Notes under the pieces: model-generated
The model's database searches: none
Told to the model about the DNA's origin: nothing
What the model saw: the letters and a program-made list of their open reading frames with translations, nothing else
Part shown: in pieces, positions 19,331-24,824 of the stretch
Numbering within the stretch: position 1 is the first letter of the stretch
Layout of the letters: every line of letters begins with the position of its first letter
Translations under genes and position numbers: made by a program
Assembly: GCA_964016885.1 (NCBI GenBank)
Contig: OZ024754.1
Coordinates: 7,192,001 to 7,256,000 of the forward strand
DNA: 64,000 bases
From: Eledone cirrhosa
Lineage: Eukaryota
Direction of reading: 5' to 3'

Positions 19331-19686
19331 ATTTGGTTTGTCAGACGCTGTGACCCCGGATGGACTACCAGCACCGTTGGTAGGGGTCGAAACTGCCCAA
19401 GTCCATCTCAACGGCCAATGACCATAGTTTTGTGTCCTTCGTTTGTAAATTTATTTTAAAAAAATAATTTAAGGTTTCTCCTTAATTGTGTTTCGTTTCG
19501 GTTTGTTTCCGATCGTTGTCTTGCCATTTGTTAATTATCTTAAATATATATATATATATATATATATATAATGAGAGTGAGAGGGAGAGAAAGAGGTCAA
19601 CATGAATGGACCTGTTATTTTTATCTAAAGACATTTTTTCCAATTACACTCTCGCCCGCCCTTTCAATCAATCTCATTTCTCATTT

Positions 19687-19722
19687 TCTTCTGATGAAGG
19701 ACTAGCGTCCGAAACATTAAGA
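19687..19722 (+). ncRNA. Minimal type I hammerhead motif (stem III likely CpG-decayed)
   Basis: UCUU-CUGAUGA-A-GGAC UAGC GUCC-GAAAC AUU-AAGA; homologous to 36618-36653 including ~80 bp downstream. Confidence 0.75.
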
Positions 19723-20092
19723 CCCTCTTCATGCCATTTCAAGCGTTAACCTAATATATTCCTTCCTTATACTGTACCGATTGTGTTATTTCTGTTTACC
19801 TTTTACACACGCACGTATGTATGTATGTATGTATGTATGTATGTATGTATGTATGTATGTATGTATGTATGTATGTATGTATGTATGGTTAAAATCCCTG
19901 ATGTTATTTCAACAATCTACGACGACGATTCATTCACTCAGTGAATCAATAAGTTTGCAGTATTGAAACTGCGTCTTGATGTTTAGTGGACACATGATAG
20001 TTAATTCACTGGCTGATCGGTTATATATATATATTTGAAAAGGGAGTATGGTTCTATACAAAACAGTGGTTATAGAGAAAAGGTGAACTTAG

Positions 20093-21537: not shown

Positions 21538-21781
21538 TGAAGGCGCATGGCTTAGCGGTTAGAGCATTGGGCTTGCAATCGAAAGGTTGTGAGTTCAATT
21601 CTCAGACCGGGTGATATGTTGTTTCCTTGAGCAAGACACTTTATTTCACGTTGTTCCAGTTTACTCAGCTGTAGAAATGAGATGATAGGACTAGGGTCCC
21701 TATCATTAAATCACCCAAGACACCTCCAACGAGATATACCTTGGGGGAGGCCAGCTAAACCTGCATAGGTGTGAGCTGTAA
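21538..21781 (+). mobile_element. SINE family B (CORE-like)
   Basis: GGCGCATGGCTTAGCGGTTAGAGC head, GAGTTCAATTC B-box, CCTTGAGCAAGACACTT core. Confidence 0.88.
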
Positions 21782-23965: not shown

Positions 23966-24728
23966 GTAATATCCTCCATTTAAATGAAAATAAAATTTCA
24001 CGCAAAAAGGAAAAGATTTCTCTAAGAAAGATACACTTTACGCCGAAGGAAAAATCTTTCAGGAAGCTAATAAAAACTGCAACAACAACAACAACAACAA
24101 TAATAAAACGGAAGAGAATATCAACTGCCAGTATCGAAGTATTTAGTACTGAAGCATGAAAACAAATAACATTTTCAAACGCTATCATTAAATGTCTATC
24201 ACGGAATTTCAATATAATGTCTTATCGATGTATAAATAGATTTTATAAACAAACCAAAACCTAAATGAATAAATACGTGTGAATCTGAATTTTCTTTTAA
24301 ATGAATCATGAAAGTTGATTTCGTTTCGGTAAGTTTTAGAAACACCAAATTGGATGACTGACGTAACGAGAACTAATTCGTGAATACATGGAAGTCTTTC
24401 GTAATGTAATGTAATGACTGAGAGAGGTTAATTAACATGCTTGTACAGGTAATGTGTATACATTTTTTGTACAGGTAGTGTATATATATTTTCTTTTTTT
24501 GGGGGGGCGGGACACACACACACACTCACACCCTATATATCTCTATCTATCTATATATTTATTTATTATAAGAACAGATTAAAGTTTAAGCAAAGAATCG
24601 CTGCTTTCACCTTTAACGGGATCTTCCACGGGTTTTTATATATTTTATATATACATCTCTCTTTCTCTCTCTCTCTCTCTCTATACTTCTGCTTTTTCGT
24701 TTTGACTGCATGCCCATATATGGACTGT

Positions 24729-24824
24729 ACCCCTTGATAAGTTCAGCTAGATCCCCGCCGTCCTAATACTGCTGGGTTAGTTCGGATCAAGCGGTCGAAA
24801 CGGCCGGAGCTCATACGTCGGGGT
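24729..24824 (+). ncRNA. Type I hammerhead motif, U3:A8 variant core, long stem II
   Basis: ACCCC-UUGAUAA-GUUCAGCUAGAUCC..GGAUCAAGCGGUC-GAA-ACG..CGU-C-GGGGU; GUC cleavage triplet. Confidence 0.72.

Follow-up and report, generated by a model that had tools for sequence, protein, structure and literature searches.

The window analysed here, 64,000 nucleotides of the genome of Eledone cirrhosa, holds at positions 24729-24824 a sequence that reads as a hammerhead ribozyme with the core UUGAUAA. The question raised by this locus is whether it is itself an active and unusual ribozyme, in which both partners of the pair between positions 3 and 8 have been exchanged together, as was proposed in an earlier note on this DNA. 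The hammerhead motif is real. The UUGAUAA core, stem I, the GUC site, the 56-nt arm and stem III described in that note were all found in the sequence at the positions given below, and G10.1-C11.1, A15.1-U16.1, H17, U4 G5 A6 A9 and G12 A13 A14 are all present; positions 3 and 8 are U and A, and not the C3 and G8 of the canonical CUGANGA core. A descriptor made of stem I, YUGANRA, G10.1-C11.1, GAAA, a 3-bp stem III and H17 matched the window three times (the site at 24729 and two canonical ones) and gave no match in 100 Markov resamples of the window. Searches with Rfam returned 141 matches in the window and 20 in the locus of one young copy, and a hammerhead was absent among them. The parts of the locus, all on the forward strand, are the following.

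24683..24841, + strand: truncated 3' end (pseudo-LTR) of what its sequence indicates to be a Penelope-like retrotransposon, subfamily A1; 87-94% identity to other copies across the span
24729..24733, + strand: 5' strand of stem I, pairing with 24820-24824 in the sequence; unchanged among the subfamily majorities A1 to D
24734..24740, + strand: core nucleotides 3-9 (U3 U4 G5 A6 U7 A8 A9), from the sequence and the subfamily consensus; U3 is 24734, N7 is 24738 and A8 is 24739
24741..24796, + strand: arm II, 56 nt, closed by G10.1 (24741) and C11.1 (24796)
24744-24752/24786-24794, + strand: 9-bp helix of arm II, with two pairs broken in the window copy, at 24789 and 24793
about 24763-24780, + strand: distal hairpin of arm II
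24797..24799, + strand: G12 A13 A14 (GAA), from the sequence; constant in 10/10 subfamily majorities
24800..24818, + strand: stem III with a 9-nt loop; A15.1 (24800) pairs with U16.1 (24818), plus 4 bp in the family
24807..24812, + strand: loop III palindrome GAGCUC, a predicted dimer contact, constant in all subfamily majorities
24819..24824, + strand: C17 and the 3' strand of stem I; predicted cut after 24819, from hammerhead numbering
24839..24860, + strand: (TA)n run, from the sequence; 3' end of the element and likely target site
39642..39711, + strand: second, shorter fragment, with the 3' half only and without core 3-9

The three-helix architecture with an open helix I fits the family, and four of its pairs are broken in the window copy. 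Arm II is made up of a G-C pair, a U·U mismatch with a bulged U, the 9-bp helix, an internal loop and the distal hairpin; the stem II of about 56 nt announced in the note is therefore present as an arm, but as a two-part helix instead of one stem. Likewise, the looped stem III exists, but with just 3 bp in the window copy compared to 5 bp in the family. The related partial copy, from which the note had deduced a repeat family, is homologous to the window copy over 39651-39711 (82% identity), and its 5' junction bears an inverted duplication of 8 nt (39642-39649). A palindrome, CCAUAUAUGG, lies just 5' of stem I at 24713-24724 and is also found in the family, where in several subfamilies it forms part of a helix I extension that pairs with the last bases of the element.

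As for the activity of this copy, it is a 159-bp 5'-truncated relic ending in (TA)n. In the majority sequence of its subfamily, the proximal helix II is 9 bp long and stem III 5 bp, and the window copy breaks two pairs of each by four private changes (24789, 24793, 24814 and 24815). At its minimum energy the 96-mer takes a fold other than a hammerhead, with a stability like that of shuffled sequences (z -0.72); the hammerhead fold lies 11 kcal/mol above the minimum, with a predicted probability of 2e-8, versus 0.018 for a near-majority copy (L004). The window copy is thus predicted to be inactive. The proposal that the locus itself works as an unusual ribozyme can point to the intact core, stem I, G10.1-C11.1 pair and GUC site, but in view of the four stem-breaking changes, the folding prediction and the truncation of a copy whose subfamily is about 8.5% diverged from its majority, it is considered very improbable.

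The parent element, which was missing from the earlier note, was found by walking upstream. Judging by protein motifs, the locus is the decayed 5'-truncated end of a Penelope-like retrotransposon of the kind found in the Hydra clade. Long copies hold an ORF for a reverse transcriptase-endonuclease upstream of the motif, in which RLRWR, DKT, FDIE, GLYRDDGL, a CxCX5C linker and YIGLT were recognised, followed by a C-terminal endonuclease with CxxC and CxH (the latter read by eye) flanking conserved E and N residues. In one locus (L201), a stretch of 546 aa containing FDIE, LYRDD and YIGLT remains open, and corresponding pieces are found in L093 and L096. A protein search retrieved 1,463 relatives among 8,000 scored sequences, and the best 120 are about 40-58% identical and all unnamed; Pfam searches with the ORF pieces and two homologues gave no match above the cut-off. 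The assignment to the Hydra clade is based on these motifs and on likeness by eye to published proteins, Hydra-1_Obim among them. The endonuclease end of another family with a CxCX5C linker was seen at L211:1508-2026, and no hammerhead was recognised by eye in the 900 nt after it.

The family shares with the Hydra clade, as described by Craig et al. (2021, PMC8557442), the DKT in place of DKG, the CxCX5C linker, CxxC and CxH around E/N, the C-terminal position of the endonuclease, (TA)n targets, a 3' hammerhead, the tail, and inverted truncated partners. It differs in the RWR found at the site of the N-terminal RWK of that clade, a conservative change, and in its length: the 3' untranslated part of young copies is about 1.3 kb, which makes the element longer than the usual size of under 3 kb. 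Furthermore, all 26 Hydra-clade rows of the hammerhead table in that source show canonical CUGANGA cores with short arms, unlike the U3-A8 core and long arm found here; for the long arm, the 29-34-nt loops II of two spike-moss elements in that source offer a precedent (PMC8557442). Two family motifs were not found in its supplement, and this is therefore regarded as another family.

Every copy has the motif at its 3' end, and tandem copies have it a second time directly 5' of the ORF (L105, L107, L114, L122, L126 and L128); pseudo-LTRs generated by partial tandem copies were also seen in the family. Many insertions carry an inverted truncated partner copy. At the 3' end of the copies there is either a TA run or a tail of about 70 nt that they have in common, and a crude parse of 215 copy ends gave 60 TA runs, 55 tails, 84 other ends and 16 that could not be parsed. 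Three other identities were discarded: a Naiad element by the C-terminal position of the endonuclease, a SINE by the RT ORF, and a retrozyme by dispersed copies joined to an RT ORF, instead of short tandem non-coding units. Non-LTR retrozymes (PMC7229834; bioRxiv 10.64898/2026.07.22.740005) do resemble the family in their type I hammerheads, their occurrence as animal repeats and their link to Penelope elements, but they are short, tandem and non-coding, whereas the family is dispersed and protein-coding.

Other repeats were observed in and around the window. A different hammerhead occurs twice, at 40400-40457 and 63925-63980; its core is the canonical CUGAAGA, with a 5-bp stem I, a stem II of about 6 bp and a stem III formed by palindromic (UA)n, AT-rich or TA sequence comes after each copy, and it likely represents a second Penelope family. 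A minimal hammerhead with a canonical CUGAUGA core and a 4-bp stem II (19684-19725) has kin in L004, L020, L167 and others. Right after the TA run starts a different repeat (24863-25100), with copies in L016, L024, L041, L112 and L238, and often with inverted partial partners, as in elements also targeting (TA)n. A dispersed SINE-like repeat of about 170-300 bp is present as four to five near-tandem copies at 29223-30106 and in about 15 other places, and no hammerhead was found in it. Weak tRNA matches inside a dispersed repeat (12196-12251, 21548-21605 and 40023-40080) are probably tRNA-derived SINE heads. The window also contains a long array of 9-15-nt units (45356 to about 48000). Between about 53000 and 58000, some 5 kb have a GC content of 4-5% and a strong G skew.

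The abundance of the family allowed the state of the 3:8 pair to be followed across copies. A search of the 3.0 Gb genome of the same animal yielded 2,592 candidates, of which 40 were scored (90-93% identity). A 24-nt pattern leaving positions 3 and 8 free had 185 exact matches; among the 100 of these that were listed, 92 hold U3-A8, four U3·G8, two A3-A8, one U3-C8 and one U3-U8, with C3 in none (counted by eye). UUGAUAA is accordingly the consensus of the subfamily, a point that the note had proposed to check, and the possibility that the core is a decayed canonical CUGAUGA is ruled out by the same counts. A wider pattern with positions 3, 7 and 8 free gave 1,203 exact matches, so the family has at least this number of copies. 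Among them, 336 hold C3 and 35 lack A8; these 35 include four C3-G8 and four C3-C8 cores, which leaves at least 328 copies with C3·A8. Both patterns favour young copies and miss those with altered fixed letters.

The supposed rarity of the U3-A8 core is not supported. Cervera and de la Pena (2014, PMC4209133) have already published this core for Penelope hammerheads, counting about 1,300 hits in Schistosoma mansoni, and Fig. S3 of that work includes the same UUGAUAA heptamer, UUGAAAA, and one U3·G8 core (Saccoglossus kowalevskii 1). There is in this sense nothing unusual about the flagged locus, a dead fragment whose core variant is already known. The family and those hammerheads are alike in being of type I within pseudo-LTRs, with a U3-A8 core, G10.1-C11.1 and a palindromic loop III, and in occurring mostly as single truncated copies. 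They differ in stem III, here a true 5-bp helix with a 9-nt loop, and in arm II, which has 54-56 nt and two helices here but 3-8 bp and a short loop there (PMC4209133). A further difference is that C3·A8, amplified here, appears in none of the 56 rows of Fig. S3.

The copies fall into ten subfamilies on one ladder (A0, A1, A2, B0, B1, B2, C1, C2, E and D), with the window copy in A1. Along this ladder, the 3:8 pair passes through U·G, U-A, U·G, U-A, C·A and U-A, and is never C-G: A0 and B0 have U·G, C1 and C2 have C·A, and A1, A2, B1, B2, E and D have U-A. The trees were built with the three core columns masked, from the 100 copies among 167 whose homology extends 200 nt upstream, and a later tree has 78 rows after 6 were dropped; they rest on 184-450 nt. 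Median divergence from the subfamily majority is 11% in A0 and 8.5% in A1, then 6.4%, 6.5%, 4.8%, 4.9%, 2.9% and 2.6%, to 1.9% in D, with 5-25 rows per subfamily and just 2 for A2. This fall gives the ladder its direction in time.

The 5' half of the core is fixed by the search patterns for C, D and E, and a pattern-free check covers D, A0, A1, B1 and B2. When A0 was collected from upstream sequence alone (40 of 77 candidates scored), 22 of 31 copies held U3·G8, two C3-G8, one U3-A8 and three other combinations, while three could not be parsed. In D, UUGAUAA was present at all 30 loci collected in this way. B0 shows G8 in 10 and A8 in none of its 12 copies. The monophyly of C was rejected (p-AU 1e-4, upstream sequence alone, 55 of 100 rows), from which it follows that C·A ancestors gave rise to the young U-A subfamilies; a single clade of A0 and B0 was also rejected, both groups tested having been named after the first tree was seen. 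In the same direction, G7 and letters of the 5' flank are common to E and C2, but not to E and B2.

It could be argued that recombination or gene conversion between subfamilies has created a false ladder, that the source lineage has always been U3-A8, and that the mismatched subfamilies are side branches. The short alignments, the long branch to E and D, the majority states taken from 2 to 30 copies per subfamily and the template switching of Penelope elements speak for it. Nevertheless, the two rejected groupings, the letters shared by E and C2, and a divergence that drops from 11% to 2% make this the least probable of the explanations considered.

In the light of this series, the pair does not behave as the covariant pair announced in the earlier note. 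A two-sided change at 3:8 is found in no copy of a 38-row alignment, and entire subfamilies carry U3·G8 or C3·A8. On the evidence of the subfamily series, the pair toggles through mismatches rather than covaries. All five changes at positions 3 and 8 are transitions, versus 52% of those upstream (P about 0.04). U3-A8 is known as a natural, compensatory replacement of C3-G8 that is active in vitro (Perreault et al. 2011, PMC3088659); the same replacement is found in the variants of that study and here, but there it is a true covariation, and here a single-sided toggling via U·G and C·A in amplified subfamilies. An older subfamily with the canonical pair was also sought. C3-G8 occurs in 4 of the 1,203 matches, and in 9 matches, scattered, when stem I is left out of the pattern; the best lead (L285) led to A0, which is U3·G8, so that an origin from C-G is not seen. 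A distant copy at L283:1470-1605 has the stem III and loop of the family, but its core is the canonical CUGACGA and its arm II differs; it may be a relic that predates A0.

Along the ladder, position 3 changed twice, position 8 three times and N7 five times, N7 taking all four bases, while U4, G5, A6, A9, G10.1, C11.1, G12, A13, A14, A15.1, U16.1 and C17 did not change. N7 is the sole free core position of the hammerhead consensus (PMC3088659). The 17 positions that lie outside the search patterns (3' strands of stems III and I, U16.1, C17 and the palindrome) had no changes; for comparison, 40% of 160 upstream columns are unchanged, and 0.4^17 is about 2e-7 if sites are taken as independent. 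Two-sided changes between subfamilies affect four pairs of arm II, three in the 9-bp helix and one in the distal part, and paired cells reach 92.5%, versus 28-47% when the alignment is slid (38 chosen, related copies). The number of two-sided pairs (4) is not above shuffles, 494 of 500 being as high, with few events among related sequences.

Predictions for the fold vary among subfamilies. In single copies of B1, B2, C1, C2, E and D, the hammerhead fold lies 0.8-2.2 kcal/mol above the minimum, and cofolding of these same copies predicts a domain-swapped hammerhead dimer via the stem III palindrome. The free dimer of A1 is not predicted to be a hammerhead in cofolding, and in an A0 copy the hammerhead fold lies 6 kcal/mol above the minimum. 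The RNAalifold consensus is not a hammerhead either: bases 9-10.4 pair with the loop III palindrome, a predicted arrangement which could represent an off-state and could also account for the conservation of the palindrome.

It is proposed, with confidence and doubt evenly balanced, that the motif is the type I hammerhead of the element, and that in active elements it would be slow, assisted by dimer formation or by protein, and tolerant of weak pyrimidine-3/purine-8 pairs. As the 3:8 pair has switched among subfamilies in a core that, N7 apart, did not otherwise change, the element probably cuts itself weakly, or can do without cutting in some copying cycles. On the evidence of the subfamily tree, mismatched cores have passed through full retrotransposition cycles. 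Copies keep both flanks of the predicted cut, indicating that the template is uncut or rejoined at the 3' motif. Transcripts of tandem copies would carry two motifs, which might pair through the loop III palindrome; occasional cleavage could then trim the RNA of the element out of longer transcripts, and a weak core would spare the downstream motif until reverse transcription starts 3' of it. None of the six copies that span the pseudo-LTR into the ORF has its 5' end at the predicted cut, and cleavage as the event that sets 5' ends thus receives no support from them, the sample being too small to decide.

This proposal has parallels in known systems. Metazoan Penelope hammerheads cleave weakly and slowly, and as dimers (PMC4209133). 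In the Poseidon element PAc of the anole, cleavage by the hammerhead requires the protein of the element, and insertion uses mainly uncut RNA (PMC11167929). PAc and the family are alike in the location of the hammerhead near the junction of pseudo-LTR and ORF, in the use of uncut RNA as template, and in an optional tail marking the starts of reverse transcription. PAc differs in its canonical C3-G8 pair, in belonging to another clade and in that its activity has been measured.

A possible, less probable reading is that the motif is a hammerhead-shaped structural signal for protein binding or for the start of reverse transcription, with catalysis dispensable throughout the sampled history. In a deep mutational scan, the swap from C-G to G-C was the only one to rescue the 3:8 pair, and other single and double changes at this pair had low activity (PMC9901934); cores with U·G, with C·A or even with U-A may accordingly be close to inactive. 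At least 328 C3·A8 copies and two U3·G8 subfamilies were amplified and seeded later waves, and canonical C-G was never the consensus of a subfamily. Moreover, catalytic mutants of the anole element were unaffected in insertion in vitro (PMC11167929), and the extended stem I ends where most copies end; constraint at the end of the element could come from protein binding. However, the distribution of frozen and free positions fits catalytic rules (N7 free; C17, G12 and G5 fixed), and the lineage returned to Watson-Crick U-A in all three exits from a mismatch, an outcome with a probability by chance of 1 in 8, which AT-biased mutation would raise.

The C subfamilies admit a reading of their own, in which the register slips so that C3 pairs with G7, A8 acts as A9, and A9 is an extra base before G10.1, restoring a canonical C-G pair in a core without N7. 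C3 and G7 arose on one branch, G7 is present in 97 of the 100 C3 copies listed (94 CUGAGAA, 2 CUGAGGA and 1 CUGAGCA), and Penelope hammerheads typically have one more base between 9 and 10.1 (PMC4209133). Nevertheless, N7 changes so frequently that its coincidence with C3 is not unlikely, G7 persisted in E when position 3 went back to U (E type accounts for 21 of the 35 listed U3-G7-A8 matches, by eye), and backbone changes at A6-N7 lowered activity in the variants tested (PMC3088659). No natural hammerhead lacking N7 was found in the literature examined, and the slip is judged improbable.

A further reading would be that selection holds the lineage at a deliberately weak ribozyme, cycling among U·G, U-A and C·A and never fixing the fast C-G, which is one transition away from the cores of the family. 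The reason would be that fast cutting would sever the template from the start of reverse transcription. This is judged unlikely. If true, the genome would preserve a ribozyme active site as a natural, dated series of alleles, including a high-copy C3·A8 core (or a register-shifted one lacking N7) that still cleaves.

What is new in the family is the ordered series of ten subfamilies with an amplified C3·A8 core. No such time series was found in the parts of PMC4209133 examined, nor was one with an amplified C3·A8 core found elsewhere in the published work examined; variants of this kind, or rates for them, may be described by Lunse et al. (2017) and by Przybilski and Hammann (2007). In this one animal genome, Rfam misses hammerhead motifs numbering more than a thousand. 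In the family, nature provides U·G, U-A and C·A cores as an ordered panel in an otherwise fixed scaffold, each of them proven able to ride through cycles of retrotransposition. This panel bears both on the question, posed by earlier work, of whether the propagation of these elements needs catalysis (PMC4209133, PMC8557442, PMC11167929) and on the natural limits to which the 3:8 pair can be relaxed.
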